This document shows positions 2,963 through 62,352 of a stretch of DNA of 64,000 nucleotides, one piece after another. The first letter of the stretch is position 1; each line of letters starts with the position of its first letter. This stretch comes from a virus. Its lineage: Duplodnaviria; Heunggongvirae; Uroviricota; Caudoviricetes. Location of the stretch: the IMG/VR virus record IMGVR_UViG_3300042914_002848; one strand, written 5' to 3'. A model generated the notes under the pieces. The model made no database searches. It was not told the DNA's origin and saw only the letters and a list, made by a program, of their open reading frames with translations. Position numbers and translations under genes: made by a program.

Positions 2963-2994
2963 GTAAATATACAAAATTTATTCCATATTTACAA
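2963..2994 (-). promoter_or_regulatory. conserved phage promoter element (Bacteroidetes-type; variant with TTG upstream box) abutting the mgsA start codon
   Basis: Reads TTGTAAATATGGAATAAATTTTGTATATTTACAT|ATG on the minus strand. Member of an 11-copy family. Confidence 0.5.
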
Positions 2995-3259
2995 TACTTT
3001 CAATAATTTTTTTTACATTTTTTGAGTGAATTTTTACTTTGATAACGCCCTCACCATCAACTTTAATTCCATCCATCAATACATTTTTAAGTTTGGACAA
3101 TTCATCATCAGTTATTTTATTTTCAACGGGTATTAATTCTACATTCAATTCCAAAGCCTGCTCCTTTTGTGAAAAATAATATTTGGAGTTACTAAACCAT
3201 ATAAATTTATTAGGGGTCAATAATCCTTTCAAAAAGGAAATAAACTTGACCGGACTCAT
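2978..3259 (-). CDS. hypothetical protein
   Basis: 93-aa ORF. Confidence 0.45.
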   Translation of the reverse strand: MSPVKFISFLKGLLTPNKFIWFSNSKYYFSQKEQALELNVELIPVENKITDDELSKLKNVLMDGIKVDGEGVIKVKIHSKNVKKIIESIVNME

Positions 3260-3276
3260 AACTACAATACTCCATA

Positions 3277-3471
3277 TTAAGTACCTACTTCTACCTCTTG
3301 AACACGATACTTTCTACCAGTTGTATCTAACTGAGTAGCCTGTTGAGCAAAATCTTCTGCTTCTTCTAATGTATCAAATTCATCTACCATATCATCCGCA
3401 TCCAATTTTGCTACCCAAATCTTTGGAGTGCTTGCAAGTAATTGTTTGTAAACTCTAAATTTTGTTGCCAT
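3277..3471 (-). CDS. hypothetical protein
   Basis: 64-aa acidic ORF. Confidence 0.45.
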   Translation of the reverse strand: MATKFRVYKQLLASTPKIWVAKLDADDMVDEFDTLEEAEDFAQQATQLDTTGRKYRVQEVEVGT

Positions 3472-3482
3472 TTTACCCCTTT

Positions 3483-3827: not shown

Positions 3828-3845
3828 TATTTTCTCCTTTTTATT

Positions 3846-5102: not shown

Positions 5103-5387
5103 TTATAATTTTTTAAATTTAGGACTACAACCCAAATAGATTGAGTTTTTGAATGGTGTTACTCTATGGGTTTTAATTTTATGTTTCTTAATAACTTCAT
5201 CTACGATTTCAGAAAATTCATATTCACAAATTTCATGTGCCATAAAATCAATTACCTTTTGCCCATTTTCATCTATGGAGGCGTTATTCATTAATTCATC
5301 AAAATCGGCTGATGGGGTGGATGCTTTATATAGTTTCCTATAGCATTCCCTCATTGCTTCTATTTCTTTTGTTGTTGCGTTCATCAC
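5103..5387 (-). CDS. hypothetical protein
   Basis: 94-aa ORF. Its first 10 codons lie inside the 57-bp direct repeat. Confidence 0.5.
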   Translation of the reverse strand: MMNATTKEIEAMRECYRKLYKASTPSADFDELMNNASIDENGQKVIDFMAHEICEYEFSEIVDEVIKKHKIKTHRVTPFKNSIYLGCSPKFKKL

Positions 5388-5414
5388 AATTTTTCTACTT
5401 TAAGTTCACCATCA
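5358..5414. repeat. 57-bp direct repeat, copy 1 (spans the GS 3' end and the 5103..5387 gene's 5' end)
   Basis: Differs from 6435..6491 at 2 of 57 positions. Confidence 0.85.
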
Positions 5415-6409
5415 ATTTGTTTTAAGGCATCCGAAATAACTTTAACAATCTTATACGGGTCTGCATTTGAAGCAGGCCTTCTATCCTCAATATATCCCTT
5501 CCACTTCAATGATGTTTGAATGGGAACTCTTAAAGATGCACCTCTATCAGAAACACCCCAACTAAACTTATGTATGGATTGGGTTTCATGCTTACCTGTT
5601 AATCGTTGTTCATTAGATGAACCATAATTTTCAATATGTAAAGTGTGTCTACTTTCAAAAACATTGAATATTTTAGAAAAGTATTCCATTCCCCCAATTT
5701 CTCTCATTATGTGGTTTGAAAAATTACAATGTAATCCACTACCATTCCAATCACCCATAACAGGTTTTGGGTGAAACTCAATTTTATATCCCCACTTTTC
5801 GGATAACCTTTGTAAGATATATCGTGATATCCACAAGTCATCTGCAGCAGATTTTGATGAGGTATTGAATATCTGATATTCCCACTGTCCCAAAAGTACT
5901 TCTGCGTTGGTGCCTGTTATTGATAATCCAGTATTTAAGCAAATTTCAAGATGTTCATCTACGAATTTTCTACCACTTACATGCCCATCACCCACACCAC
6001 AATAATACATACCCTGTGGTGGTGGAAATCCATTTATTGGAAACCCAATCGGTCTACCATCTTTTAAAATAGTATATTCCTGCTCAAATCCATACCATAC
6101 ATTATCATAATCAGGTAATATGTGTCTAATATTACTTTCGTGTGGTGTCCCATCAGGATTCATAACCTCACACAAAACAAAATAACTTACATATGACCCC
6201 CCATCCATAGAATTTTGGTATAAAGCAACAGGTTTAAGTATTCTGTCAGAATAATGCCCTTCGGCCTGTTTTGTGGATGAACCATCGAATGACCACTCTG
6301 GGCAATCAGATAGGGTTATAGAATCTTTTTTGGATAATATTTTAACTTTACTTCTTAGGTTTGGTTCGGGTGTATATCCATCCAACCAAATGTATTCTAA
6401 TTTTATCAT
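5384..6409 (-). CDS. glnII: glutamine synthetase, type II (eukaryote-like GSII) homolog
   Basis: 341 aa, collinear with GSII. Matching blocks: EYIWLDG, GMYYCGVG, NAEVLLGQWEYQIF, HCNFS, RLTGKHETQSIHKFSWGVSDRGASLRVP, GYIEDRRPASNADPY. Confidence 0.8.
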   Translation of the reverse strand: MIKLEYIWLDGYTPEPNLRSKVKILSKKDSITLSDCPEWSFDGSSTKQAEGHYSDRILKPVALYQNSMDGGSYVSYFVLCEVMNPDGTPHESNIRHILPDYDNVWYGFEQEYTILKDGRPIGFPINGFPPPQGMYYCGVGDGHVSGRKFVDEHLEICLNTGLSITGTNAEVLLGQWEYQIFNTSSKSAADDLWISRYILQRLSEKWGYKIEFHPKPVMGDWNGSGLHCNFSNHIMREIGGMEYFSKIFNVFESRHTLHIENYGSSNEQRLTGKHETQSIHKFSWGVSDRGASLRVPIQTSLKWKGYIEDRRPASNADPYKIVKVISDALKQIDGELKVEKL

Positions 6410-6434: not shown

Positions 6435-6491
6435 TTCTATTTCTTTTGTTGTTGCGTTCATCACAATTTTCCAACTTTAAGTTCACCATCA
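6435..6491. repeat. 57-bp direct repeat, copy 2 (spans the phosphatase 3' end and a truncated 16-codon copy of the 5103 gene's start)
   Basis: See copy 1. It encodes the shared C-terminal tail DGELKV(E/G)KL. Confidence 0.85.
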
Positions 6492-7183: not shown

Positions 7184-7216
7184 TAAATATACGAATAAGT
7201 TTTTATATTTCCAAAT
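7184..7216 (-). promoter_or_regulatory. conserved phage promoter element (TTTGGAAA, 20 nt, TATATTTA)
   Basis: Identical over 33 bp to 7619..7651. Matches the Bacteroidetes -33 TTTG / -7 TAnnTTTG architecture. Confidence 0.6.
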
Positions 7217-7618: not shown

Positions 7619-7651
7619 TAAATATACGAATAAGTTTTTATATTTCCAAAT
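7619..7651 (-). promoter_or_regulatory. conserved phage promoter element
   Basis: Exact 33-bp copy of 7184..7216, sitting 14 nt upstream of the ATG at 7605. Confidence 0.6.
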
Positions 7652-9405: not shown

Positions 9406-9433
9406 AACTTTTAATTTTTATTTACGTGAATGT

Positions 9434-9461
9434 ACAAAAAGAGGTTGGAATCTCCAACCTC
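9434..9461 (-). terminator. rho-independent terminator
   Basis: Perfect 9-bp stem GAGGTTGGA/TCCAACCTC with a 3-nt loop, followed on the minus strand by TTTTTGT. It lies 28 nt past the SPFH gene's stop codon. Confidence 0.75.
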
Positions 9462-9488
9462 AATTTGCAAAAACCACAATTATTTTTT

Positions 9489-11802: not shown

Positions 11803-11837
11803 GTAAATATACCACACAAATGGTATATTTCCAAATT
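11803..11837 (-). promoter_or_regulatory. conserved phage promoter element
   Basis: Reads AATTTGGAAATATACCATTTGTGTGGTATATTTAC on the minus strand. Confidence 0.55.
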
Positions 11838-11876
11838 TTGTATATTAAATTTGCGTTAAGTTTTTTGAGTAAAAAA

Positions 11877-12111: not shown

Positions 12112-12270
12112 TTATTTAATAATATAATCAATTAATTGGGTAATTAGATAAAAAACCGATATCAACTGATAAGCCATCATCGTCAAAAAGCCAAGCGTAA
12201 TAATGGCCACCGATTGAACAAATATCCGAAGGGGTTTCATACTCATTGAGGTTGTTTCCATATCAATCAT
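12112..12270 (-). CDS. possible small membrane protein
   Basis: 52-aa ORF (MIDMETTSMSMKPLRIFVQSVAIITLGFLTMMAYQLISVFYLITQLIDYIIK) that starts 8 nt after a promoter element. Confidence 0.3.
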   Translation of the reverse strand: MIDMETTSMSMKPLRIFVQSVAIITLGFLTMMAYQLISVFYLITQLIDYIIK

Positions 12271-12278: not shown

Positions 12279-12311
12279 GTAAAGATACGAAGAAAACCCC
12301 ATATTTCCAAG
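12279..12311 (-). promoter_or_regulatory. conserved phage promoter element (part of a duplicated terminator-promoter module)
   Basis: Reads CTTGGAAATATGGGGTTTTCTTCGTATCTTTAC on the minus strand. Near-identical copy at 21619..21652. Confidence 0.55.
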
Positions 12312-12350
12312 CTTTCTATATTAAATTTAGGTTAAATTTATCCACATTTT

Positions 12351-12379
12351 TTGTGGAAAAGTGTCCAATTTATTGGACA
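12351..12379 (-). terminator. rho-independent terminator (in duplicated module)
   Basis: Inverted repeat TGTCCAAT-TT-ATTGGACA followed on the minus strand by CTTTTTCCACAAAAAA. It begins 5 nt after the NUDIX gene's stop. Confidence 0.55.
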
Positions 12380-17535: not shown

Positions 17536-17570
17536 TAAATATACAAAATAATTTTTAAATTACCAAAATT
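17536..17570 (-). promoter_or_regulatory. conserved phage promoter element upstream of groES
   Basis: Reads TTTTGGTAATTTAAAAATTATTTTGTATATTTAT on the minus strand. Confidence 0.5.
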
Positions 17571-19325: not shown

Positions 19326-19517
19326 CTACACAATAGATAATTTTCTTTTTAAGTTTTTAATATGTTTACACTCCGAACCCCTACCGAATTCATAAGCAGG
19401 GCAGTTACATATAAATCGTTTATGATTAAAAGATGTAACATTGTAGTATTTGAGCCTCTTTGTTTTTTTATCACGAGAACCCATTTCAATGTAAACTTGT
19501 TTCCAATCTAAACTCAT
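19326..19517 (-). CDS. SWIM zinc-finger protein
   Basis: CxC-x(n)-CxH pattern in FICNCPAYEFGRGSECKHI. Confidence 0.45.
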   Translation of the reverse strand: MSLDWKQVYIEMGSRDKKTKRLKYYNVTSFNHKRFICNCPAYEFGRGSECKHIKNLKRKLSIV

Positions 19518-19535
19518 ATCTTTTATTTATTTTAG

Positions 19536-19618
19536 TAGTCAGGACAGGATTCGAACCTGTATTAGGGCTTACGACCTATGATACTCTATTTACTACAACG
19601 CCATGTAGCCACCTGACT
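19536..19618 (-). tRNA. tRNA-like element (83 nt)
   Basis: On the minus strand: 7-bp acceptor stem AGTCAGG/CCTGACT, T arm ACAGG-TTCGAAT-CCTGT, D stem CTAC/GTAG with GG in the loop. No canonical anticodon stem could be drawn by eye. Confidence 0.5.
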
Positions 19619-19624
19619 ATTTGT

Positions 19625-19834
19625 TTATTTTTCTAAAACATACCGCATCATTTCTTGCATCTTGAGAATCAAAACTTTCATTTCATCCTCATTAAGATAC
19701 AACCTACTGTTAGGTGTTTTATCATCTAATTCTTTGGTTTCTATGATGATTCCATCGAACTCTTCCGTGGGGTAAATTCCAACATTCTGTTCTTCTGTTG
19801 AAATAATAGTTTTAATCCAAACTTTGTTTTTCAT
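19625..19834 (-). CDS. hypothetical protein
   Basis: 69-aa ORF between the two tRNA-like elements. Confidence 0.45.
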   Translation of the reverse strand: MKNKVWIKTIISTEEQNVGIYPTEEFDGIIIETKELDDKTPNSRLYLNEDEMKVLILKMQEMMRYVLEK

Positions 19835-19852
19835 AACTTTTTATTTTTTTTG

Positions 19853-19974
19853 TAGTCAGGACAGGATTCGAACCTGCGGAGAACGGCTTGATAGTTTCTG
19901 CGCGAGGGCTACTTAATTCGCCACCCCTCAATCCTTGTTCTCAATTACGCTGCGGATACCACCGCCACCTGACT
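19853..19974 (-). tRNA. tRNA-like element, atypically long (122 nt)
   Basis: Same acceptor stem and T arm as 19536..19618, D arm GCGG-TGGTAT-CCGC, plus about 40 extra internal nucleotides. Confidence 0.35.
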
Positions 19975-20068
19975 GTGTTGAGGATGAGAAGTCCTCTGTG
20001 TTGTAAGTGTTTTCATAATTACTTCTAATTATCTACATTCCTTTCTCAAGAGAACAACACAATGTTGA

Positions 20069-20233
20069 TTACTGTGCTACAGCAGCAGTAGTATCAACAC
20101 TTCCACCACCCACAGTGTCTTGTGAGAGAGTTGAATCTACAGGTTCACCCATAGTTTCAGTTGTGGTGGTTTGGTTGTTTGAGCAAGCCGTAACTGTTAC
20201 AGCAAGCATCAAAATTGCGATTAGTTTTTTCAT
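20069..20233 (-). CDS. small lipoprotein (below the ORF-track size cutoff)
   Basis: 54 aa (MKKLIAILMLAVTVTAC|SNNQTTTTETMGEPVDSTLSQDTVGGGSVDTTAAVAQ) with a signal peptide and lipobox Cys. ATG at 20231-20233. Confidence 0.45.
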   Translation of the reverse strand: MKKLIAILMLAVTVTACSNNQTTTTETMGEPVDSTLSQDTVGGGSVDTTAAVAQ

Positions 20234-20488: not shown

Positions 20489-20522
20489 GTAAATATACAA
20501 CAGAAAAATGGAGTTTCCAAAC
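20489..20522 (-). promoter_or_regulatory. conserved phage promoter element
   Basis: Reads GTTTGGAAACTCCATTTTTCTGTTGTATATTTAC on the minus strand. Confidence 0.5.
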
Positions 20523-20636
20523 TTTGTATGTTAAATTTAGGTTAAATTTTTAACTTAATTAAGCCATCATCAGTTCATTTTTAAGTTGTTCCTGATAGGG
20601 GTTATCCGACATCACAAATGTATCGTATTACTGGTG

Positions 20637-21065
20637 TTACCAATCGTTTTCAGAACCAACTTTTACTAAATCCACACTTTCTGAATAATAACCGTTTGAT
20701 GAGCCATACCAACGAATATCTACATATCCTTTTATGGTTGCCAATTTGTAAAATGTCCAAGTGAACGAATATTCATAATCGTAATAGTTATCACCTTCTT
20801 CAAGTTTCTTCTTTTCCTTTTCAGCTAATTGTTCAGGCGTATGTTCACTTGAACTGTTTTCTTCTGCAACCAAAATAGGGCTACCTACCAAATCATTTAA
20901 GTCACCGTTGATGTCATCTATTGATACACCTTCGCAACAATCTTGTCTGTGGTACATTTTGTATTCAGTTCCATCATCAACGGTAAAAATTATTTCATCG
21001 TTGGCTTCGTTTTTTACTACGGCAGTTAATGTTTTGCCTAAAAGTTGTTCAATTCCTGTTTCCAT
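20637..21065 (-). CDS. hypothetical protein
   Basis: 142-aa ORF. Confidence 0.5.
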
Positions 21066-21165: not shown

Positions 21166-21588
21166 TTAGCTACCTACCAATGCAGCAACCAACGCATCGT
21201 GCGCTGCTCCTTTAGGTTGTTTAATCATTACACCATTATAATTGGTGTATTGTGGTGCGGATGAACTCCAACCTTTTGAGTGATTACTAAAAGCCCGTTG
21301 GCCATAGTTAGCAGCAACCATTGGTGATACCTTTCCAATATTATCCCATCCACTTTCCCACTTTTTCAATTCGGTTTTTTCCTTAAAAGTGATACTATCT
21401 TCGGTAAACCCAGCAATCATTTTAGTTGGTGCTTTACGGAAAATGTTTTTACGCTCCTCACGATTTATCTCAATAAACAATACTGAGCGGACTTTTACCC
21501 TACAAACCTTTAGGTTCATAGTGTAATCCTTACCATTCACTGGGATGGTCACTGCGACAACTTTACCTTCCAAACTTTGTAGTTCCAT
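21166..21588 (-). CDS. hypothetical protein
   Basis: 140-aa ORF. A G8/T7 homopolymer tract sits just upstream of its ATG. Confidence 0.5.
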   Translation of the reverse strand: MELQSLEGKVVAVTIPVNGKDYTMNLKVCRVKVRSVLFIEINREERKNIFRKAPTKMIAGFTEDSITFKEKTELKKWESGWDNIGKVSPMVAANYGQRAFSNHSKGWSSSAPQYTNYNGVMIKQPKGAAHDALVAALVGS

Positions 21589-21618: not shown

Positions 21619-21652
21619 GTAAAGATACGAAGAAAAACCCATATTTCCAAAC
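21619..21652 (-). promoter_or_regulatory. conserved phage promoter element (second copy of the duplicated module)
   Basis: Near-identical to 12279..12311. Confidence 0.55.
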
Positions 21653-21692
21653 TTTTGAGATTAAAATTCCATTAAAGTTATCCACATTTGTG

Positions 21693-21718
21693 TGAAAAAG
21701 TGTCCAATTTATTGGACA
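21693..21718 (-). terminator. rho-independent terminator (second copy of the duplicated module)
   Basis: TGTCCAAT-TT-ATTGGACA hairpin followed by CTTTTTCACAC on the minus strand. Confidence 0.5.
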
Positions 21719-22481: not shown

Positions 22482-23060
22482 TTAAAAAAGTTTTAATAAA
22501 TCGTTAAATCTTGATTGTACTAATGATTCAAATATACGAACTTTTTTCTCAGGAACAAAGTGGTCTACCACTAATTTTGTTTTAATGTTTATGTTTGGGT
22601 ATTTTGATTTAAGTTTATTTACCGCTTGAATGTTTGATGGAGAATCATCCATAAAGGCTATATCGGTATATCCTTTTTCTATATGCTTTTCAATCCAATC
22701 TGCTTTATCTTTTGGATTATTACTACCTAATGCAACGGGATATACATCTAAACCTAATTGGGTTTTAAAAAAATGTCTAATTGGAAATCCTAAAGACCTG
22801 GCCGTTAATATAGTTACTTTTTTGGATGGGTTTGATAGCATTCTTTTTAGTAATTCTACATTCTTTTTAATTAATTTTGGTTCTTTTAAGAGTTTGTTGA
22901 ATTCCCCAAAATCAAATTTATCGCCGGGTTTTTCCTTATAAACAGCATATTCACCTGGTGTAAGCATGGATTCTTTTCCATCTGAGTGGATTACTCTTAT
23001 TTTAGAAGATGTCTTTACTAAAGTATCATCTAAGTCAAATATTCTTAAAACTTTTCCCAT
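22482..23060 (-). CDS. HAD-family hydrolase (5'-nucleotidase-like)
   Basis: DxDxT motif in IFDLDDTLV. The ATG abuts a promoter element. Confidence 0.55.
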   Translation of the reverse strand: MGKVLRIFDLDDTLVKTSSKIRVIHSDGKESMLTPGEYAVYKEKPGDKFDFGEFNKLLKEPKLIKKNVELLKRMLSNPSKKVTILTARSLGFPIRHFFKTQLGLDVYPVALGSNNPKDKADWIEKHIEKGYTDIAFMDDSPSNIQAVNKLKSKYPNINIKTKLVVDHFVPEKKVRIFESLVQSRFNDLLKLF

Positions 23061-23063: not shown

Positions 23064-23099
23064 TATAAATATACAAAAGAAAGTTTAATTATCCAAATT
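23064..23099 (-). promoter_or_regulatory. conserved phage promoter element
   Basis: Reads AAATTTGGATAATTAAACTTTCTTTTGTATATTTATATGT|ATG on the minus strand. Confidence 0.5.
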
Positions 23100-34712: not shown

Positions 34713-34713
34713 A

Positions 34714-35271: not shown

Positions 35272-35283
35272 ACTATCTAATTA

Positions 35284-38742: not shown

Positions 38743-38760
38743 TAGATATAAATTTTATAG

Positions 38761-40113: not shown

Positions 40114-40114
40114 T

Positions 40115-42075: not shown

Positions 42076-42131
42076 ATTTTAATTTTTGTATTTTATTTTT
42101 TAAATTTATATAAAAACTATTTTATATAGAG

Positions 42132-43019: not shown

Positions 43020-43020
43020 A

Positions 43021-44001: not shown

Positions 44002-44024
44002 TTTTATTTATTTTTATTTATTAT

Positions 44025-44780
44025 TTAACAATATATGTAATTAACACAATCATACCAAAAGAATGATTTGTTAGTTGTTCCCCAGCCTGTTATACCACTA
44101 TCAGCTTTTAAACAATCAATTTGTAATTCTGGTTTATATGATTGTTTAATAGCCGTTGATAAATGGGCTCCACCTGACCAAAGACATATAAATCGTTTAC
44201 ATGAATAAATTAAATCAGTATAGTTAAAAATACCATTTGTTTTTATTGGTATAAACCCAAAAGTATTTAACAAATCAATATCAATAACCGATTTTCCATA
44301 ACTATTTTCACTTAAAGAATATATAACTTTTTCATTTTTAAATGATTCAATATGATTCAAAATCACATTAGTATTGTGAGAATAGTTTGCAACGGATGCG
44401 GCATTTAAATCTAAAAATATATAATCATTATATTCTTTTAAATTATTTGGTTTATAATAAATTTTAGGATAATCACTATCGCCATTCATACCATATAGAT
44501 TTTCTATATTCTTATGTATGGATAGTGATGTATTAAATTCTACTACATTATTTAATGCTAACCCCCAATTTTCTATATGCCCACAATTTGCTTCATCTGA
44601 CGAAAACCCTTTGATATATGGATTAGATTTCCATATTAAATCATAATGTTTCATATCTCTAAATACGGACTTATCGCTGATATAACAATCAAATCCGTTT
44701 TTATGAAACACTTCTGGTAAAGTTGAAAACGCTAAGTGGTCTCCTAACCCTCCCCAATTTATGTATAATATTTTTTTCAT
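44025..44780 (-). CDS. glycosyltransferase family 9-like (tentative)
   Basis: N-terminal ILYINWGGLGDHLAFSTLP resembles the heptosyltransferase SLGD motif. Confidence 0.4.
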   Translation of the reverse strand: MKKILYINWGGLGDHLAFSTLPEVFHKNGFDCYISDKSVFRDMKHYDLIWKSNPYIKGFSSDEANCGHIENWGLALNNVVEFNTSLSIHKNIENLYGMNGDSDYPKIYYKPNNLKEYNDYIFLDLNAASVANYSHNTNVILNHIESFKNEKVIYSLSENSYGKSVIDIDLLNTFGFIPIKTNGIFNYTDLIYSCKRFICLWSGGAHLSTAIKQSYKPELQIDCLKADSGITGWGTTNKSFFWYDCVNYIYC

Positions 44781-44789
44781 TGTTATTTT

Positions 44790-45458
44790 TTATCTTAAAT
44801 TCCAAGAAGCTTGTGGGTCGGAAATATTTGAAAATATAGTTCCATTAAAATTATTAATTACAGTTTGATGCAATCCCAAAGCGTCTTGAGAATTGTTATA
44901 ACTATGGTATTCTATACCTATATATTTAAAATCATTTAAGCTATGTAATATAGTTGGTAAAATATCATACTCACCGCCTTCACAATCTATTTTAAAATAT
45001 GTACAACCATTGATTAAATATTTATCAATTGTTTCAGTTTTACAATGTGAAACTTTACCTCCAATCTGATATATGGATGAACCTCCACTATTTGTTTCCG
45101 GTGTAGATATGTATATATCACCATCTTCCACATTTGTAATAGCCGTTTGATGTAATTCAAAATCGTTTTCTGAAAATCCATTAAGTATTATATTTTTTTT
45201 AAAGTTTTCAAAATTTTCCAATACGGGTTCAAAAGCTATAACTTTACATCCAAACCTTTTTTTAATATAGATTGAAAACATACCAACATTTGCACCAATA
45301 TCAATAACGGTATCATTTTCATTCAAAGATATTGCTTCTAAACCATAAAAGTTATTCAAAAATTCATTCCAAACATAAGGTACAGTATCTGACCTTTTTT
45401 TGTCTTGAAATGTAAATAACTGATCATCTTTTGTAAATGTAAAAATTTCTGTGTTCAT
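44790..45458 (-). CDS. FkbM-family methyltransferase
   Basis: VIDIGANVGMFSIYI. Confidence 0.55.
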   Translation of the reverse strand: MNTEIFTFTKDDQLFTFQDKKRSDTVPYVWNEFLNNFYGLEAISLNENDTVIDIGANVGMFSIYIKKRFGCKVIAFEPVLENFENFKKNIILNGFSENDFELHQTAITNVEDGDIYISTPETNSGGSSIYQIGGKVSHCKTETIDKYLINGCTYFKIDCEGGEYDILPTILHSLNDFKYIGIEYHSYNNSQDALGLHQTVINNFNGTIFSNISDPQASWNLR

Positions 45459-45523
45459 TTTGTTTTAAATTTTATTTTATCAAGCAATGTACTAAACCAC
45501 TTGAATTCATATATAATATTTTT

Positions 45524-46297
45524 TCATTTTAATTGATATAAAAAATTAAATGCGCTAATATCTTCTATTTCATTAAAGTTATTTTCATTAAAAGTACTAA
45601 TTGGTTTTTTTCCGTGACACGCATTACCCCTTTCAACTTTAGAAACAAATTCAGAATATGTTCTTATATAGTAATGGTTAAGTTGAGCGATGTTGTCATT
45701 AGCCAAGTAATTATGTGAGGCGGTGCCTCTGTTAAAATTCGGGTCCACCCACATTTCAGTATCCCAATGATTATTGTGTTTCATTTCAGGTCTTAATTTA
45801 CAAATACTTTTAAATTGGTGGTGTAAATCTTTTTTTCTTTTTGTGAACCTTTTAACTGAACTAGTTTCAGAATAATCAAAATCTTTTATATTGTTATCTC
45901 CAAACATCGCCCAATTTATTACTAAACAATTAAAATCTTTATAATCGTCTATAAATAATTTTATGTCTTTTGTTTTTTTCAATACTAAAAATTCGTCTAC
46001 ATCAAAAAAAGCAGCCCATTCATATTCTGTGTGATATTTTTTTGCAAAATCTACATAACATTTTGTTTGTATATTTTTAACCCATTCAGGCTCATTTGAT
46101 TCCACATAGTTTGAGAACGATTTACCATCATAAATGTGAAAATGCACCCTTTCGTTTGGTATTGGATTTTTAAATCTCCAATCGTTTTGGAAAATATGAA
46201 TATCATCAAATCCAAGAAGTAAATGGTAATCAATCCATTCTTGTAAATAGTAATCTTCTTCTTTAGCTATACAAACTAACGATATCTTTTTTTTCAT
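45524..46297 (-). CDS. glycosyltransferase (GT92/GT2-like)
   Basis: ISLVCIAKEEDYYLQEWIDYHLLLGFDDIHIF. Confidence 0.45.
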   Translation of the reverse strand: MKKKISLVCIAKEEDYYLQEWIDYHLLLGFDDIHIFQNDWRFKNPIPNERVHFHIYDGKSFSNYVESNEPEWVKNIQTKCYVDFAKKYHTEYEWAAFFDVDEFLVLKKTKDIKLFIDDYKDFNCLVINWAMFGDNNIKDFDYSETSSVKRFTKRKKDLHHQFKSICKLRPEMKHNNHWDTEMWVDPNFNRGTASHNYLANDNIAQLNHYYIRTYSEFVSKVERGNACHGKKPISTFNENNFNEIEDISAFNFLYQLK

Positions 46298-46303
46298 ATA
46301 ATA

Positions 46304-47089
46304 TTAGTTATAATTAGGTGTGTATAGTGAATTAATTTTAAAATCATTATTATACAATGCGTACATAGCTCTTTCTAATAAATATGCTTCTCCAGGCTGT
46401 TTACTCCAAGAACAATACATTTTCATAGTATTATAAAAATTTAAATTATATCGTAAAATATCCTGTTTATTAAAAATGTAATTACAACCAGGAGCAAATC
46501 GTGTGTAATCATAAAGTATTGGATTTTCAAATATTGAAAACATTAAATCTTGATAGGTTGATACATATTTGTATCCAAATTGACCGTTAACCTGACCATT
46601 AACGATGGATATATGTTCGTAGTATTCATCGGTATCTTCTGTTACAAATCCAGAGCAACCATTGGTGAATTGAGGTGCTTCTCGTATATAATTTTCAATT
46701 GGTGTAAATGTTTGATTATTTATAATTTTAATAAATTTTAAAAAACCACAATGTCTAGGAACTACATTTCCTTTACAAAAAATAATTACTTCTGGCAAAT
46801 TATAATAATTATTTGTAATATAATCAAATATATCATATACATTTGCACCAACATTTTTTTGGTGTATTATTTTATCAGATGGTTCAAATCTATGAGCCTT
46901 ATCATAAATTAAGTAATTATCTGTAAAATCAAAAAACCAAGATTCTTCCAATGCTTCTGGTAACATATTATAATCTGTTATAACTAGCAATGCATCATTA
47001 GTAATAATTTTTGGAAATTTATATACTGGGTGTTTTTTTTGAATTATCATAATGTAATTTTTAAGATTAAATTTTAAATTACTAACCAA
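46304..47089 (-). CDS. hypothetical protein (glycan island)
   Basis: 261-aa ORF. Confidence 0.45.
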   Translation of the reverse strand: MVSNLKFNLKNYIMIIQKKHPVYKFPKIITNDALLVITDYNMLPEALEESWFFDFTDNYLIYDKAHRFEPSDKIIHQKNVGANVYDIFDYITNNYYNLPEVIIFCKGNVVPRHCGFLKFIKIINNQTFTPIENYIREAPQFTNGCSGFVTEDTDEYYEHISIVNGQVNGQFGYKYVSTYQDLMFSIFENPILYDYTRFAPGCNYIFNKQDILRYNLNFYNTMKMYCSWSKQPGEAYLLERAMYALYNNDFKINSLYTPNYN

Positions 47090-47811
47090 TTTTGTGGATA
47101 TAGATAGGATAGATTTCTATCTTCAGAAAACCATTTAGTGGGGGCAATCACTTTTTTATTTATATTTTTATTTAAAAATGCGCCCCACCAACTAAAAGTA
47201 CTATTACATATCACATTATGATGGCACAATGACATTAAACACATATCTTCAAATTGATTTCCTTGAATAAAAACAACTCCATCAGGAAATACTTGCTTAC
47301 ACCAATCAATATCATCGGAAAATATCAAAAAAGTATAGTCGTTATCATTAAAGTAATTTAAAGCTTCTTGAATATATTCGGGTGTAATCACCCAATAGTC
47401 GGAATGATTAATATAGTCTTGTCTACGAACGTGAATAGATACTGGATTTTTATACAAATTAATTATTTGATTACATTTAGTAAGTATGTGGGGTTTAAAT
47501 TTGAATTCTTTTATTATTTCTTCTTCATGTCCGCTGATGTATTCATAGGTTTGAAAATACCCATCTATAACAACATTATCCCCCTCTATGTTTCCTATTG
47601 TACAATTTAAATCAAATCCCTCTAATAAATCCAATTTATAGGGAATCCAAATATTATTGGTAAAGTCAAAACAACCATTTTTTTTTATATTTGTATTATC
47701 CGGCAATATAATAGGTTGTTTCATAGCAATTGAAATGACTTTTAAGGCAGCATACTGAAACATTTGGTTTCCCAATCTTCCACTATAACCAATACTTTTA
47801 TGTGTTATCAT
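47074..47811 (-). CDS. glycosyltransferase family 11 (alpha-1,2-fucosyltransferase)
   Basis: GT11 motif GYSGRLGNQMFQYAALKVIS. Confidence 0.65.
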   Translation of the reverse strand: MITHKSIGYSGRLGNQMFQYAALKVISIAMKQPIILPDNTNIKKNGCFDFTNNIWIPYKLDLLEGFDLNCTIGNIEGDNVVIDGYFQTYEYISGHEEEIIKEFKFKPHILTKCNQIINLYKNPVSIHVRRQDYINHSDYWVITPEYIQEALNYFNDNDYTFLIFSDDIDWCKQVFPDGVVFIQGNQFEDMCLMSLCHHNVICNSTFSWWGAFLNKNINKKVIAPTKWFSEDRNLSYLYPQNWLVI

Positions 47812-48016
47812 AACATTCTAAAAAATATGTTTGATCTATTTCAACTGAAAGAATTTTATTAAAGCCCAAGTCTAGGGCTTTTAGTATGCCATCTCCATGA
47901 TGAGTGCATGTTTCAAAAAATATATTATGATTAAATTTATATTTTTTGGATAATTCAAAAAAAGTTAATCCTTTAATTCCTTCAACTGTGACTTGAGAAT
48001 GTGTTTTATATATCAT
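47798..48016 (-). CDS. hypothetical protein
   Basis: 72-aa ORF. Confidence 0.35.
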   Translation of the reverse strand: MIYKTHSQVTVEGIKGLTFFELSKKYKFNHNIFFETCTHHGDGILKALDLGFNKILSVEIDQTYFLECYDNT

Positions 48017-54883: not shown

Positions 54884-55358
54884 ACTTTTTTATAATACTT
54901 CTAACCTCATCCTCTGATAATATCTCTAAATAATCATCAGCTTCTCTGCTTGAGACCTCAAAGTACTTACAAATATACGAAATAATTTCTTCAGAAACAA
55001 CATTCCCGCCAGATTTTTTTATGTATTTATCAAAAGTTTTTTTCTTTGGTAAAAAATCATAATATACCTTATACACCTCCCTAGCACCTAATTTTCCATT
55101 GGTGAATCTTTGAACTTCATTTACTAAATCAATGAATTCATAGTTCATACTCAACCAACGATTGGCAAGATAAACCGAAAACGATTTTTTATCAACATCC
55201 GAAAGGGATTCCCATTTCGTTTTGTTTTCTTTCAAACCACTTAAATGGTCAAAAAGAGTTTTAGCTTTTATCGTTCCTTCAGAACTATCACTTTTTTTCT
55301 TCGGGGGCATCGAATAAACCTTTTGGTACAAATTTTGGATGAACAGTTCCACACTCAC
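54831..55358 (-). CDS. hypothetical protein
   Basis: 175-aa ORF. Confidence 0.45.
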   Translation of the reverse strand: MSVELFIQNLYQKVYSMPPKKKSDSSEGTIKAKTLFDHLSGLKENKTKWESLSDVDKKSFSVYLANRWLSMNYEFIDLVNEVQRFTNGKLGAREVYKVYYDFLPKKKTFDKYIKKSGGNVVSEEIISYICKYFEVSSREADDYLEILSEDEVRSIIKKYGVKDSQIDKMYKDAAK

Positions 55359-56776: not shown

Positions 56777-57475
56777 TTATTTCACTTCAACTAAAAAGTA
56801 TTCTGATTTAAAACCTTCACTCTCAAATGTACAATGCGCCAAACCCGCAGTTGCGATTTTTAGATTAGCTGCTTTTGGAGCCCGGTTCGCATTTAGGATT
56901 TCTTTCAAATACTTTGCAGAAAATGAAATAGGCCCAACCGAATCTTTGGTGCAAGTACAATCAACCTTAATAGAAATTCTATTTGAGTTAATCTTTGAAT
57001 ACCCCAAAATAATCTCACCCTTACCATCTTTACATTGGAAGGTAAAAGTATCGGAATCACTTAAAGCGCCTTTTGACTTGATGAACCTACTAATAAATTC
57101 ATCACTCAAAGTGATTTCAGATTCAAAATCAGGCACCTGTTTGATATCCGGCACAGCAGGAATAACTGATAGGTCAGCCATCATATAGTTCACCGTAGTT
57201 GAATTATCGGAGAACTCCAATGCAGCACTTCCCGCAGTTACATTGATATTAGCATCCAACACACCTAATAGATTTTTGAGTTGGGATGTAGTATAGACAC
57301 CAAATTCACCATCAGCAAATTCAGCATCTTCAGATGTAACAGTTCCCAATAGGGTTTTATCATCTGAAATGAATTTAACACTCATACCAGTTTTATCTGA
57401 TACGATTTTTACCGATTCAATCTCACCACCTAAATTATAGCGGCTTATGAATCCCTCTAACGAAGATTTTTTCAT
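56777..57475 (-). CDS. sliding clamp (T4 gp45-like, tentative)
   Basis: 232 aa (T4 gp45 is 228 aa), adjacent to the clamp loader and preceded by a promoter element. Confidence 0.5.
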   Translation of the reverse strand: MKKSSLEGFISRYNLGGEIESVKIVSDKTGMSVKFISDDKTLLGTVTSEDAEFADGEFGVYTTSQLKNLLGVLDANINVTAGSAALEFSDNSTTVNYMMADLSVIPAVPDIKQVPDFESEITLSDEFISRFIKSKGALSDSDTFTFQCKDGKGEIILGYSKINSNRISIKVDCTCTKDSVGPISFSAKYLKEILNANRAPKAANLKIATAGLAHCTFESEGFKSEYFLVEVK

Positions 57476-57496: not shown

Positions 57497-57530
57497 ATAC
57501 AATATACGAAATTTTTATCAATTATCCAAA
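57497..57530 (-). promoter_or_regulatory. conserved phage promoter element
   Basis: Reads GTTTGGATAATTGATAAAAATTTCGTATATTGTA on the minus strand. Confidence 0.5.
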
Positions 57531-58111
57531 CATTTATAGAAAATAATTTTACGATTTTCACCAGTTGGTTTTACAAACTTTTTAGATAACTCTTCCGAAT
57601 TATCCCATTTCATAGATGATGATTTATGTTCAGGTAAGCCTGCTGTAAAACCAATAGATTGCCAATTATCTGCTTTATAAACTGCTCCAGTATTACCACC
57701 TGCTACAAATGTAATGATATGTTTAAGTTCATCTCCATATTTTTGTTTCCAAGCAATCGGGCCTTTTTTTCTCAATTCTTTTAAAATACGAGTTCCTGCA
57801 TTCTTTATTGATTTTACCATACAAAATCTCCAATTATTACATATTGTATTGAAAACTTCTCTATACTCCAACTTACTTAATTGTAACTTATTTAACAAGT
57901 CTTTTGGTGGTGGATATACTGAAGAACCTATACCAATCATACCAACAGGCTGCGATGGAAATGAATCTTCTTCGTATATTAACCAATCAATTCTCCTACC
58001 AACAGAAGCATTATGTGGAACATACGAATGATAGTTTTCAATTATTTTTTTAACAATATCTTTTTGAGATTGTGTTTTAACTTCAACTAAAACCATCGTT
58101 TTAAAATCCAA
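57518..58111 (-). CDS. hypothetical protein
   Basis: 197-aa ORF. Confidence 0.45.
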   Translation of the reverse strand: MDFKTMVLVEVKTQSQKDIVKKIIENYHSYVPHNASVGRRIDWLIYEEDSFPSQPVGMIGIGSSVYPPPKDLLNKLQLSKLEYREVFNTICNNWRFCMVKSIKNAGTRILKELRKKGPIAWKQKYGDELKHIITFVAGGNTGAVYKADNWQSIGFTAGLPEHKSSSMKWDNSEELSKKFVKPTGENRKIIFYKCLDN

Positions 58112-60599
58112 AAAATTGTGAAGCTTTTTGTAAATTTTTATTTGGTAAATCCCACTTCATCGCATTATAGAAATCATCTATTTTGTTTTGAAGAGCACCT
58201 TCCCAAATAGCATCCAAGTCGGTGTAATCGTTAATTATTTTTTCAATCTCCGGCGGGTCATTCCATCCCGTAAAACCAACGGTATCTAACCCCAAATTGT
58301 TTCTTTTCAAATAAACCCACTTAATCTTATCACCATCTTTCATTGGTTCAAATTTAAATGGACATTTGTAGTATTTCAATAGTTGATTATATGCAATGGC
58401 TGATTTGACATGCGCAGGTGTTCCTTTAGGGAACTTACCCAATGAATATGTACCATCATCATACTTACTCAATTCTTTTACAGCGGAGTTCTTTGCTACA
58501 TCCTTCTTTGGTTGAGTTTCCATCCCCTCCTTAAAATCCAATATCTTCTTATCAATATCATTCTTATTTACCCCCTTTAAGATATCCGATAGAACCTGCT
58601 CCATCACACCCTTAAAGTAAGTTGGAAAATCAGAGCGTTTAACATCTAACCCCTTTGCATCAATTTTATCACATGGGACGGTATTATCATTGATAATCCA
58701 TTGAGCATATCGTTTTTTGGCAACCCAAAATCCAGACTTAGCAATTGTTTCTTGCTTAATATCAAATCGGTGTTTCTCTATATTGAACAACCTTTTTGAC
58801 ATTACATCATAGGTTTTATTAATATACTGCTGCACCTCCTTTGCAACTGCTAAGATAGCAGGCACCATTTCCTCATCCGATTGTTCATTAATAGTTGGGT
58901 TTCGGTGCTTTACAAGCGGAAGAGCTGAAAAATACACAGAGTCAGTGTCCGTGTAAATGTTGTAATCCCCGTCCGTTCCAATCTGCGAAATATAATACTG
59001 ATTCGCAATCTTTTCAGTAGTTTTAATTACCGTCTGCCCCGTCATTGTAACTGCTTCTGCGTTATCAACATCGTAGAATCTAAACGATGGTAATCCTAAT
59101 ACACCATATAGTGAGTTAAGCATAATCTTTTGAACAAGTTGGCGTTGGGAATAAAACTTATACAAATCTTTATTACCCTCTTTACCATACTTTTTCATCA
59201 AATCCTTATACTCAACCCTTTTATCAAACCACACATTTAGGATTTCAGGTATTACTCCCACCTGCTCATTTGAATATATAACCCCATTTGAAGCAATGGA
59301 GTAGTTATTGGATTTTATCAACTCATTAAACTCACTATGCACTAATGGTGGTAATTGATTACCATCATCATCAACCACAACATAAAGTTCAATTTTATTC
59401 TTTACATATTCCTCACTCGTAAACCCTTTAACCTTACCAACTTTTGTTTCAGGGCTGATATTCAAACTCATAATAATGGATGGATATAGAGATGTTAAAT
59501 CCAAGTCATACAACCATTGGTATAAGCCTGGTACAGGCTCTTTCACATACGCACCTTCAAACTTACCCTCACTATCCTCACCTTTCCTTTTTGGTTTGTT
59601 AGGAGCAACCCTACCACTTCTACGCAAGAATGTGAGTATCGCACCCTCTAACCACTTAGATGAAAATAAGAAATCTTCATAAGGAACATGCCCCGCGTGA
59701 CATATCGCTCTAGCCAAATCAATGAATTGGAGTTTTGCATCCAAGTCCACAACCAATTTAACATCTTCAACATTGTACTCAATGAATCGTTCCAAGTCAT
59801 CTCGCATCAATTGGTCTAAGTTTCCCGTATATTGAACCTTACCTCTACCCAACTCTAACTTTGAAATGGTATCCAATCTGTAATTAGGAAATTCCTGATA
59901 AGTGTAGGTTTTGTAAAGAGCAAGGTAATCTAAGCAAGAAACACCTGCTATCACATAACGCTCCCTATTTTTTAGATAATCCACCTTTCCTATAGGTGAT
60001 AAGGAATTAGCATTCTTATGCCCCAATACCTTTTTTAACCTATTGTAAAGGTATGGTATATCAAAGAAATCAATATTCCACCCAGTTACAATTGTTGGAT
60101 TTATTTCCTGCCACTTTTGAAGAAATGCCCACAACAAATCCCGTTCGTTGTTATATATGTTTACTTCTGCACCGCCAATAGTTTTGTTCAGTTTAGTATC
60201 ACCCAAAACATAAACAAAATAATCTCCAGTCGCAGAGTCGTGAGCTGCGATGGAGGTTATACTATTATCGGCTTTTTCAACATTTGGGAGACCTGTATTC
60301 ATCTCCACCTCAATATCAAATGTCAATACAACATTCCCCGTTGAAACATCATCAGATGTTCCATACTCATCAATCAAAAATCGGGTGTAATCATTTACAT
60401 CGGATTCATATAATTCTAAATTGGTATCCTTTTCCCAATAAGTAAGCTTCTTTAAGCGTTTACCATATATAGAAAAATAAGAACCATTTCCATCAGGTGT
60501 GTAGGCGTATCTACTATACTTTTTAATATAGTATCCTTTAACATCATCCCAACAGTGTATTGTGTTTGTTTCTTTATCATAGTATAGATTCTGATACAT
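58101..60599 (-). CDS. DNA polymerase, family B (T4 gp43-like)
   Basis: Exo I FDIE, motif A DLTSLYPS, motif B KIMLNSLYG, motif C YTDTDSVY. Confidence 0.95.
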   Translation of the reverse strand: MYQNLYYDKETNTIHCWDDVKGYYIKKYSRYAYTPDGNGSYFSIYGKRLKKLTYWEKDTNLELYESDVNDYTRFLIDEYGTSDDVSTGNVVLTFDIEVEMNTGLPNVEKADNSITSIAAHDSATGDYFVYVLGDTKLNKTIGGAEVNIYNNERDLLWAFLQKWQEINPTIVTGWNIDFFDIPYLYNRLKKVLGHKNANSLSPIGKVDYLKNRERYVIAGVSCLDYLALYKTYTYQEFPNYRLDTISKLELGRGKVQYTGNLDQLMRDDLERFIEYNVEDVKLVVDLDAKLQFIDLARAICHAGHVPYEDFLFSSKWLEGAILTFLRRSGRVAPNKPKRKGEDSEGKFEGAYVKEPVPGLYQWLYDLDLTSLYPSIIMSLNISPETKVGKVKGFTSEEYVKNKIELYVVVDDDGNQLPPLVHSEFNELIKSNNYSIASNGVIYSNEQVGVIPEILNVWFDKRVEYKDLMKKYGKEGNKDLYKFYSQRQLVQKIMLNSLYGVLGLPSFRFYDVDNAEAVTMTGQTVIKTTEKIANQYYISQIGTDGDYNIYTDTDSVYFSALPLVKHRNPTINEQSDEEMVPAILAVAKEVQQYINKTYDVMSKRLFNIEKHRFDIKQETIAKSGFWVAKKRYAQWIINDNTVPCDKIDAKGLDVKRSDFPTYFKGVMEQVLSDILKGVNKNDIDKKILDFKEGMETQPKKDVAKNSAVKELSKYDDGTYSLGKFPKGTPAHVKSAIAYNQLLKYYKCPFKFEPMKDGDKIKWVYLKRNNLGLDTVGFTGWNDPPEIEKIINDYTDLDAIWEGALQNKIDDFYNAMKWDLPNKNLQKASQFFGF

Positions 60600-60637
60600 C
60601 TAATATTCCTTTCGTTAAAATTATTCTTTTAGGTGAA

Positions 60638-62209
60638 TTATGGTTTATAAAAAACAAAAATAGGTTCAAATTTGTAAAACTGTCCCTCTATCTGCATTGA
60701 ATTTTTAGCTTTAGATAAATCCATTCCGGTCATCGGACTCATAGTCATTCTTAGTTTACCTTTGTATTCACATCCTAACGCAGTTAATATATCAATACTA
60801 TCACGTTCTAATGGATAAAATTTATCAGGTCCAACTTTAATATCTGCGATATTCCAACAAACATAGCGGTCATTTCTAAGATATTCGTAGATTGTTGTAA
60901 GTGTTGGTTTTAAGAAACCATCTCGCCAACTTTCATAGTTACTAAACTTTTTAAATGATTGGGTATCATCATCTGAATATCTTTCTCTATCAAAGTATGG
61001 TGGTGAGGTAAATGCGAAATCCAACTTACCTTTATACTTCTGAAATCTTGTATCATCAGCAATCACCTCAGAACCCGTTGTAAATATTTCATATGTATTT
61101 GCATGCCCCCAAAAGGAATTTGCCGCACCCGGTACTTTGCTATTAAAGAATTCTGCAAGATACTCATAGCGAGTTTTACCAATTTCAGGTATTTGATTTT
61201 CAGTATTTGGGTCATTACCGATGTAGTGAATATTTCTATCATCTATACTCAATGCTCCCAATATTCTTCCACCCCAACCCGCGGATGGGTCATAGATGTT
61301 AATCACATCTTGCTCCTTAATATGTTGTGTAAACCTTTGATACAAATACTTTGCAGTAAGTGGTGGGAAGTTTACAACTGCTTGTGTTCCCATTCCAATA
61401 CGAAACGCTGCAGTTGCTTCGGGAAATATTCTCTGTCCTAGCGGATAGATTTTAATCTGAATTGGTTGTTTGTGGATATCAACTAAATTATCAATATTTT
61501 CACCCCAATCTGCAGTTTTAAGAGAAGATATATTTTCATACTTCAATATACCAGCGTTGTAAAGGTCTTTAACCTCTTTCGCAGTAATTGGTGGAGATGG
61601 GACTTTACTATCCGCCTGAGATAAACAAAAGTTATATCCGCTCTTATTATCACCGGCTACCCATTTTTCAATCCACTCTTTACCACTTTGAATATGCGAG
61701 TTATGAAATTGCGGATTATCTAAATGCAATGTTTTAGAAAAACGATACATACCATCCTGTCTTGTTAATCTTCTCATTTGTTTAACAAACTCTGGCAAAT
61801 ACTGGTCATCTGCAAATACATCATAGATAGATGGTTTGGGCTTATCGTATGTCGAACCACCAATACCTGTCTTATACATTGCAGGAAAGAATTGATTGAC
61901 TGGTGTTGCGAACTTATTAAAGTTAAAGATTACTTCGTTTCCGTCATCATCTTTTTCTTCAAACTCATTTACTTTGTAAGTTTGTAGTTTAGAAAACTGT
62001 TCAATTATTTCTGATTCGTCAACACCAATTCGTGGTGGTGCTCCAGTTTCGTTCCACTTTCTTACTGCAAGTTCTCTAAAAAATGCCACCCACTTTTCAA
62101 AGTCAGCAAATGGCATTTTGAGAATATCTTCGTATAATAAGTTTACGGCGGGTTCATACAACCAATCATTCTTTTCGTAAAAATACTTTTTAGAATAATT
62201 GAAACTCAT
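60638..62209 (-). CDS. gamma-class amino-methyltransferase-like protein with ~300-aa N-terminal domain of unknown function
   Basis: Motif I YDPSAGWGGR and motif IV FTSPPYF. Paralogous to 62408..63628. Confidence 0.55.
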   Translation of the reverse strand: MSFNYSKKYFYEKNDWLYEPAVNLLYEDILKMPFADFEKWVAFFRELAVRKWNETGAPPRIGVDESEIIEQFSKLQTYKVNEFEEKDDDGNEVIFNFNKFATPVNQFFPAMYKTGIGGSTYDKPKPSIYDVFADDQYLPEFVKQMRRLTRQDGMYRFSKTLHLDNPQFHNSHIQSGKEWIEKWVAGDNKSGYNFCLSQADSKVPSPPITAKEVKDLYNAGILKYENISSLKTADWGENIDNLVDIHKQPIQIKIYPLGQRIFPEATAAFRIGMGTQAVVNFPPLTAKYLYQRFTQHIKEQDVINIYDPSAGWGGRILGALSIDDRNIHYIGNDPNTENQIPEIGKTRYEYLAEFFNSKVPGAANSFWGHANTYEIFTTGSEVIADDTRFQKYKGKLDFAFTSPPYFDRERYSDDDTQSFKKFSNYESWRDGFLKPTLTTIYEYLRNDRYVCWNIADIKVGPDKFYPLERDSIDILTALGCEYKGKLRMTMSPMTGMDLSKAKNSMQIEGQFYKFEPIFVFYKP

Positions 62210-62317
62210 TGGGCTGTTAATTGTTGTTCTACCAAATCAGCGAGAGTGTACTTTTGTACGAAGCGATTAATTTTGTTTTTTTCCATATTTAAAGTTTATA
62301 GTTTTTATATTTTGAAT

Positions 62318-62352
62318 GTAACGATACGAAAAAAATTTCATACCACCAAATT
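62318..62352 (-). promoter_or_regulatory. degenerate copy of the conserved promoter element
   Basis: Reads AATTTGGTGGTATGAAATTTTTTTCGTATCGTTAC on the minus strand. Confidence 0.35.

Follow-up and report, generated by a model that had tools for sequence, protein, structure and literature searches.

Eleven copies of a 32-bp, two-box element are distributed along a 64,000-nt stretch of viral DNA from the IMG/VR record IMGVR_UViG_3300042914_002848 (here called the window, meaning the whole stretch). From their sequence, these copies are very probably promoters of a T4-like phage that are read by a host RNA polymerase carrying a Bacteroidota-type primary sigma factor, sigma-A, which in the Bacteroides literature is named sigma-ABfr. 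In principle the finding is unsurprising, as phages are expected to copy the promoter consensus of their hosts, and it is essentially the Bacteroidota version of a known kind.

The window has a GC content of 32.5%, carries all of its long open reading frames (ORFs) on the minus strand and contains 5.5% non-coding DNA; its sequence is part of a 126.8-kb metagenome contig. Encoded in it are a family-B DNA polymerase (PolB, 58101-60599), a sliding clamp (56777-57475, phrog_223) together with clamp-loader subunits, GroES and GroEL, an MGS-like protein (mgsA), a metallophosphatase, a NUDIX protein and a block of glycosyltransferases. The polymerase shares 50% identity with that of Microcystis phage Mel-JY01 and about 31-34% with T4-like phage polymerases, and because of these identities the window is assigned to a T4-like phage. 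No nucleotide match to 10 kb of the window was found among cultured phages, and literature searches on the motif, on Mel-JY01 and on promoters of flavobacterial or T4-like Bacteroidota phages yielded no description of the motif for these phages.

The copies were scored with a family position weight matrix (PWM) of about 125 non-redundant instances taken from related viral contigs. All eleven lie on the minus (coding) strand, score 22-36 bits and stand at the eleven genes that had been named in a first-pass annotation of this DNA. The copy that was assigned there to the gene at 62209 does exist, but it lies 110 nt upstream of that ATG with a 26-codon mini-ORF (62206-62286, minus) in between; behind the mini-ORF follow a 523-aa gene and then PolB. 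The TGA stop of the mini-ORF overlaps the next ATG (as ATGA), which suggests translational coupling to the 523-aa gene. Two architectures can be recognized among the copies, class A and class B, the latter marked by additional elements described further below. From high to low coordinates, with distances counted from the end of the -7 box, the copies are:

62319..62350, minus strand: predicted promoter, class A, TTTGG-N20-TATCGTTA; 29.1 bits; 32 nt to the mini-ORF
57499..57530, minus strand: predicted promoter, class A, TTTGG-N20-TATATTGT; 27.1 bits; 23 nt to the sliding-clamp ATG at 57475
23066..23097, minus strand: predicted promoter, class A, TTTGG-N20-TATATTTA; 34.8 bits; 5 nt to the ATG at 23060
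21620..21651, minus strand: predicted promoter, class B, TTTGG-N20-TATCTTTA then CTAT-GTAA; 27.4 bits; repeat family D1; 31 nt to the ATG at 21588
20490..20521, minus strand: predicted promoter, class B, TTTGG-N20-TATATTTA then CTAT-GTAA; 27.8 bits; 7 nt to the ATG at 20482
17536..17567, minus strand: predicted promoter, class A; 31.3 bits; 20 nt to the groES ATG at 17515; -33 box overlapping the stop codon of the upstream gene
12280..12311, minus strand: predicted promoter, class B, CTTGG-N20-TATCTTTA then CTAT-GTAA; 22.8 bits; 9 nt to the ATG at 12270
11804..11835, minus strand: predicted promoter with the class-B upstream element; 26.0 bits; 22 nt to the ATG at 11781
7619..7650, minus strand: predicted promoter, class A; 35.6 bits; 13 nt to the ATG at 7605
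7184..7215, minus strand: predicted promoter, class A; 32.2 bits; 3 nt to the Metallophos phosphatase ATG at 7180
2964..2995, minus strand: predicted promoter, class A with a weak -33 box, ATTGT-N-TATATTTA; 22.2 bits; 3 nt to the mgsA ATG at 2960

Each copy consists of an A-rich stretch, TTTGG, 15 variable nt, ttcG and TAT(A/C)TTTA, a layout with the general geometry (T)TTG-N20-TAnnTTTN. The spacer between TTTG and TA never departs from 20 nt (11/11 copies). The -33 element reads TTTG in nine copies, CTTG in one and ATTG in one, and the -7 element has TA in all eleven and the TTT run in nine. At positions -10/-9 a T is followed by A or C in every copy and a G is never found; the last base of the box is A in ten copies, T in one and G in none. 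Three copies are degenerate, owing to the boxes TATCGTTA (62350) and TATATTGT (57530) and to the -33 box ATTGT (2995), and the strict pattern TTGG-N19-GTATNTTTA is matched eight times, never on the plus strand. Shine-Dalgarno sequences are mostly missing, with AGGAG ahead of the ATG at the groES copy only. In all eleven cases the -7 box lies in non-coding DNA directly ahead of a gene, and in three the -33 box reaches into the final codons or the stop codon of the gene before it. The gene at 23060 encodes a 192-aa protein whose sole Pfam match, to DUF2608, is below the curated cut-off.

In 100 dinucleotide-preserving shuffles a mean of 0.01 matches reached 18 bits or more, with a top score of 19.0, and the best score on the plus strand of the window is 12.0. 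Two unbiased checks lead to the same sequences: the most strongly enriched intergenic 7-mers come from the motif (GTATATT, GAAATAT, TGGAAAT and TTCGTAT), and the four largest direct-repeat families of the window correspond to the predicted promoter cassettes. The 33 identical base pairs that the first-pass annotation reported in 7184..7216 and 7619..7651 (repeat family D3) are confirmed, at 100% identity over 33 nt. Two candidates were rejected. The sequence GTAGTATATTTAC at 32467, considered as the sliding-clamp copy, lies within an ORF and has no -33 box, the real copy being 57530-57499. The upstream sequence AAATTTAATATACAAA resembles a reversed -7 box and was considered as a divergent promoter, but the plus strand offers neither a correctly spaced -33 box nor any genes.

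Transcription start site maps of Flavobacterium johnsoniae and F. psychrophilum place the sequence TAnnTTTG at -12 to -5, with no G at -10/-9 (PMC6847099, PMC9723704). In these and related data T-12, A-11, T-8, T-7, T-6 and G-5 are near-invariant, the distance from box to start is 4-5 nt, and the -33 element is TTTG (PMC6847099, PMC9723704, PMC7366714). The window copies match this consensus except for the A at the end of the box. They share with Bacteroidota sigma-A promoters the two boxes, a TA and a TTT run in the right places, the exclusion of G at -10/-9, a TTTG or TTG about 20 nt upstream, A/T-rich surroundings, and a position on the coding strand before genes. If this scheme is transferred to the window, (T)TTGG would be the -33 element and (ttcG)TAT(A/C)TTT(A) the -7 element, separated by the fixed 20-nt gap from TTTG to TA and preceded by the A-rich stretch. 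Transcription would begin 4-5 nt past the box. For five genes this would put the start at the ATG or only a few nt from it, and for the others 9-28 nt ahead of it.

The commonest class-A box in related phages is the exact consensus TATATTTG (47/121 non-redundant instances), and G is the commonest last base of the box (75/130). When the DNA ahead of groES is aligned from seven phages (65-95% GroEL identity), most keep the boxes unchanged and differ in the spacer. Outside phages, one genome per prokaryotic species was scanned with the extended pattern TTTGG-N15-TTCGTATATTTG; among the matches listed, about 73 of 80 records (about 91%) are Bacteroidota, counting six Ignavibacteria or Kapabacteria, and in this listing the extended form is thus almost confined to Bacteroidota genomes. 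In the listed genomes the extended motif points to the next ORF at a median of 34 nt, and 71/124 instances lie within 60 nt of an ORF versus 12/124 in a reverse-orientation control. Two phages served as controls. Flavobacterium phage vB_FspM_immuto, whose host is known, has 8 sense and 0 antisense matches in 41.6 kb, its boxes mostly end in A, and an annotated coding sequence begins 3 nt past one of them. The T4-like phage Melnitz (GC 37%) has 0 matches in 50 kb, with a maximum of 5.7 bits; its host OM43 is a methylotrophic betaproteobacterium. Lastly, the ORF at 30722-32623 carries a Por_Secre_tail domain, the C-terminal sorting domain of the type IX secretion system (T9SS), a system not known from outside the Bacteroidota. 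Conservation in relatives, genomic distribution and orientation, the two phages and the sorting domain all support the first-pass reading of the element as a -33 TTTG / -7 TAnnTTTG promoter of Bacteroidota sigma-A type, and with it the suggestion of a Bacteroidota host. The 30722-32623 protein also has a cohesin domain and the neighbouring protein 26693-28408 a PA14 domain; both could be secreted or surface-displayed via the host type IX system.

Several observations weigh against promoters of the sigma-A kind. Position -5, a near-invariant G in F. johnsoniae promoters (PMC6847099), is A in 10/11 window copies and T in the eleventh. Host promoters of F. johnsoniae show scarcely any -33 element, and it is weak in host promoter sets, yet TTTGG is among the most conserved positions here, and the conserved TTCG directly before the box is a further difference from Bacteroidota host promoters. 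The family PWM was seeded with the window copies, and its consensus is partly dependent on them. As for the repeats discussed below, only about 2 of roughly 8 insertions or deletions (indels) that distinguish the window phage from a close relative (contig L007, 95% GroEL identity) break at a promoter copy, and stem-loops of terminator quality occur at only 3-4 copies. Finally, the sequence also accommodates a moderate sigma-70 promoter, TTGGAA-N17-TATATT (9/12 matches), and Mel-JY01, the closest cultured relative by PolB, carries the motif and is by annotation a Microcystis phage.

The last two points are the basis of an alternative in which the copies are classical sigma-70 promoters (-35 TTGGAA, 17-nt spacer, -10 TATATT) of a phage with a non-Bacteroidota host, for example a cyanobacterium. 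A consensus scan does list several copies in this form, and in Mel-JY01, whose host is annotated as Microcystis elabens, the 17 matches also fit TTGCAT-N17-TATATT. We consider it very unlikely, given that conservation in the family PWM continues for two bases past the would-be -10 hexamer (T 79%, purine 96%) and that the fifth position of the box is T in 98% of instances, as expected from the near-invariant T-8 of Bacteroidota, where TATAAT would have an A. The exact TAnnTTTG box of many relatives, the predominance of Bacteroidota among the listed genomic matches and the T9SS sorting domain also count against it, as does the contrast between a proteobacterial AT-rich T4-like phage that lacks the motif and a Flavobacterium phage of proven host that has it. 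Nor does the region hold an excess of sigma-70-type matches overall (73 found, 87 expected).

The Mel-JY01 matches (PP395634.1) were obtained with the family PWM, a narrower PWM made from 8 window copies giving no match in that genome. They all lie at 53.7-150.7 kb, follow the strand of the genes, and avoid both the terminase-capsid-sheath module and the baseplate/tail module; their form is cTTGCATA-N-TTTCGTATATTTGTA. Should the host annotation hold, the motif would also occur in phages of hosts outside the Bacteroidota. The Microcystis label may also be wrong, for example if the true host was a member of the Bacteroidota in a non-axenic culture. The motif can be used to flag doubtful host annotations such as this one, and more generally offers a simple host marker, requiring sequence only, for an abundant group of uncultured freshwater T4-like phages. 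Mel-JY01 also encodes ribosomal protein S21 and chitinase-like proteins.

Since the copies are near-identical direct repeats, they would also act as points of recombination for the gain and loss of small-gene cassettes, and comparison with relatives suggests that they mark such sites. The relative L007 lacks window 7618-7221, comprising one promoter copy and a 103-aa gene. The deletion equals exactly one 435-bp repeat period, its junction lies inside the 33-bp identical repeat, and within the promoter the alignments on either side share 36 bp. At the same spot another relative (L009) has different ORFs, each behind full or partial copies, and where window genes 21166-21588 and 20637-21065 are replaced the left breakpoint is at the 21651 cassette. 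Eight of the eleven copies are found at 7-23 kb among small ORFs, with an A-rich upstream consensus. Some are joined to stem-loops:

21701..21718, minus strand: stem-loop TGTCCAATAAATTGGACA followed by a T-run, terminator-like, at the 5' end of a cassette (repeat family D18)
12362..12379, minus strand: the same stem-loop TGTCCAATAAATTGGACA at the 5' end of the paralogous cassette (D18)

Hairpins containing GC pairs are those at 12362-12379, 21701-21718 and 9441-9461. The spacer of the copy at 11835-11804 forms an AT-rich 11-bp hairpin with the -7 box (fold z = -3.8), and the other copies have no stem-loop above the level of shuffled sequence.

In these respects the copies partially resemble the promoter-early stem-loop (PeSL) cassettes of T4-type phages (Arbiol et al. 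2010, PMC2839356; Comeau et al. 2014, PMC4122927). As with PeSLs, many near-identical and presumably strong host-type promoters with an AT-rich upstream part cluster with small ORFans in variable regions and occur beside replication genes too, some are joined to stem-loops, and indel junctions between close relatives fall inside the repeats. Unlike PeSLs, with their sigma-70 promoter and 3'-terminal Shine-Dalgarno sequence, the window copies have a consensus of Bacteroidota type, mostly no Shine-Dalgarno sequence (groES excepted), and few stem-loops of terminator quality. PeSLs are further characterised by mini-circles that form when neighbouring cassettes recombine. Gain and loss of genes between such repeats would extend the modular shuffling known from PeSLs to phages with a different sigma-factor specificity.

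The same repeats could be seen as primarily something other than promoters, such as sites of recombination or homing, operators to which a dimeric regulator binds, or a small repeat that is mobile; their AT-rich promoter look would then be incidental. Indel junctions do lie inside copies, and in about 5/11 the AAATAT after the -33 box is complementary to the ATATTT of the -7 box and gives hairpins or palindromes; this complementarity accounts for the 12-bit echo on the plus strand. The idea is nevertheless close to negligible, as the copies are strictly strand-specific (13 to 0), occupy a fixed place just upstream of start codons, and consist of two conserved blocks around a spacer of fixed length and freely varying sequence. 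Moreover, the family consensus is only weakly palindromic, identical motifs stand ahead of genes in bacterial genomes, and repeated promoters are known to recombine as a side effect of being repeated (PMC2839356).

The copies were described in the first-pass annotation as probably one temporal class, which proves too simple a view. Four copies (21651, 20521, 12311 and 11835), all ahead of ORFans and all members of repeat family D1, share an upstream repeat, TTTAAC-N6-TTAAY, and three of these also have GTAA at the predicted +1; the 11835 copy has the upstream element and ATAC rather than GTAA at the predicted start. The upstream elements of these class-B copies are:

21660..21676, minus strand: class-B upstream element, degenerate, TTTAATGGAATTTTAAT
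20530..20546, minus strand: class-B upstream element, TTTAACCTAAATTTAAC
12320..12336, minus strand: class-B upstream element, TTTAACCTAAATTTAAT
11844..11859, minus strand: class-B upstream element, TTAACGCAAATTTAAT

Among the 162 non-redundant instances from the window and its relatives, 41 have the upstream repeat TTTAAC(A)-N5-7-TTAAY, which in 37/41 begins 16-17 nt before the 43-mer, or roughly at -58 to -42. GTAA at the predicted start accompanies the repeat in 36/41 instances and is found in 13/121 others (Fisher p = 8e-20, for instances that are not phylogenetically independent). The -7 boxes of class B are looser (TACTTTAG, TACCTTTA, TATCTTTA), and the architecture is kept in divergent relatives. 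Bacterial instances have the upstream repeat in 0/119 cases and GTAA in 1/119, and the class-B additions are for this reason regarded as phage-specific. Plausibly, the repeat and the start region could be the site of a bound factor or set a different timing on the same core promoter.

These additions, together with the uniformity of the phage copies (a strong -33 TTTGG, A-5 and the extended TTCG) relative to host promoters, might be taken to indicate a middle or late class directed by the phage, whether through a sigma factor of its own or through a re-targeted host polymerase, in place of unmodified sigma-A. The clamp, clamp loader and PolB block are among the genes served, and these are early/middle genes in T4. 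For the set as a whole this is unlikely: the extended motif fronts ordinary genes in many Bacteroidota genomes, and the unmodified host polymerase should on that account be able to read class A. T4-type late promoters, for their part, have no upstream box, and the late signal TATAAATA has no copy ahead of a gene in the window.

A narrower version, confined to class B, is possible although doubtful. In this scenario T4-like phages of Bacteroidota would have in class B a promoter class of its own kind, under phage control. A protein of phage or host origin would bind the TTAACA repeat and activate or time transcription of the ORFan cassettes, and a unit of 80-115 bp would move the small genes by recombination. 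Its parts would be TTTAACA-N5-TTAACA with the two halves one helical turn apart, the -33 TTGG, a relaxed -7 box and the CTAT-GTAA start; in two copies the unit would also include the terminator hairpin and a DnaA-box-like sequence, TGTGGATAA. T4 middle promoters (MotA box plus -10) offer an analogy only: class B likewise adds a phage-specific element to a host-type core, and its -7 box is weaker, as would be expected under activator dependence. Unlike the MotA box, the class-B element lies upstream of an intact -33 box (about -58 to -42) and does not replace it, and its sequence, TTTAAC-N6-TTAAC, is unrelated; no MotA/AsiA homologue came to light, though no search was aimed at one. If such a class were real, it would be the first middle-type or activator-dependent architecture described for the Bacteroidota transcription machinery, and a PeSL equivalent outside the sigma-70 world.

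The sequence TGTGGATAA is an exact DnaA box, the reverse complement of TTATCCACA, and occurs at 12338-12346 and 21678-21686 (minus). It is also present in L007 (about 5730 and 14216) and in the relative L011 (about 6747 and 6767), and in the window as in these two it stands 17-48 nt before class-B 43-mers; the window and relatives L007-L024 together have 27 sense and 1 antisense occurrences, which represent only three non-redundant phages. An enrichment of DnaA boxes was considered and dismissed, there being only two exact copies in the window, both in paralogous cassettes, and 42 sites with one mismatch compared with 31 +/- 6.

The genes behind the copies are small ORFans, mgsA, the phosphatase, groES/groEL, the clamp and clamp loader, and the block leading into PolB. 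From these pre-late functions, and from the position of the Mel-JY01 matches outside the structural modules, we infer that the promoters are pre-late and most likely of the early class, which would mean that they are used before any phage-directed change of the polymerase. For the Bacteroidota, where few promoters have been characterised, the copies would presumably form a strong and compact set.

In the first-pass annotation the -7 box was said to lie only 4-6 nt from the ATG in several cases. This is roughly so for five copies, in which the box ends 3, 3, 5, 7 and 9 nt before the ATG, but not for the others, where the distance is 13, 20, 22, 23, 31 and 32 nt. With a box spanning -12 to -5, the ATG of mgsA and that of the phosphatase gene would begin at about -1/+1, and the predicted leaders are 1 nt at 23060, 3 nt at 20482 and 5 nt at 12270; on geometry, leaderless starts are plausible for 2 to 5 genes. 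The N-termini of the MGS-domain protein MgsA and of the phosphatase look complete, and each protein matches its Pfam domain near the N-terminus. Among relatives the box is at most 9 nt from the first ATG of a long ORF in about 25% of 130 instances; this and the 5/11 in the window compare with 3.7-5.5% of mRNAs that are leaderless or have very short leaders in Bacteroidota hosts (PMC9723704, PMC7366714). Leaders that are so often very short or missing could be of use for studying how translation begins in a phylum that does without Shine-Dalgarno pairing.

Weaker or partial forms of the motif are also encountered in the window:

54966..55008, minus strand: weak candidate inside an ORF, GTTG-N20-TATATTTG; 15.8 bits; box ending 86 nt before the ATG at 54883
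22525..22567, minus strand: weak candidate in the end of gene 22482-23060, TTTG-N19-TATATTTG; 8.9 bits; box ending 57 nt before the ATG at 22471
12807-12800: -7-only box
9423..9465, minus strand: weak candidate, GTACATTCAC ahead of the ATG at 9405; 16.6 bits

The last of these coincides with a hairpin at 9441-9461 (minus; 9 bp followed by a T-run) that is the best intrinsic-terminator-like hairpin of its region. The 5' arm of the hairpin provides the TTGG, and the T-run continues into the -7-like GTACATTCAC. This overlapping layout of terminator and weak promoter is common in the relatives and in phage immuto.

The window has several further features. Its GC content falls to 25-29% across 34000-48000, a block of glycosyltransferase type (for example GT2 plus DUF5672 at 38761-40113) inside which there are no promoter copies; the annotation of phage immuto holds a similar sugar-modification block. 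The 7-mer GAAAGGA is enriched in intergenic DNA (5/8 occurrences), 7-9 nt ahead of start codons, and precedes the ATGs at 60599, 33242, 26238 and 19285. It is Shine-Dalgarno-like and in that sense unexpected, because Bacteroidota largely do without Shine-Dalgarno pairing. On the minus strand, two tRNA-like 3' ends (GGTTCGAATCCTGTCCTGACTAC; 19514-19559 and 19831-19876) each stand just upstream of a small gene, within the intergenic regions 19518-19624 and 19835-20068, and at least one has a matching 5' acceptor strand, TAGTCAGG. Scans of the window for tRNAs and Rfam families returned nothing, nor did a permissive Rfam scan of 19450-20120; at the two 3' ends neither ARAGORN nor Rfam, even at E <= 1, made a call. 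Finally, a glutamine-synthetase-like gene (5384-6409) is flanked by 57-bp direct repeats (5358-5414 and 6435-6491, 96% identical) and is absent from the 95% relative L007, with the same overlap signature as the deletion at the promoter repeat, and is a second case of cassette gain or loss by repeat recombination, here unrelated to promoters.

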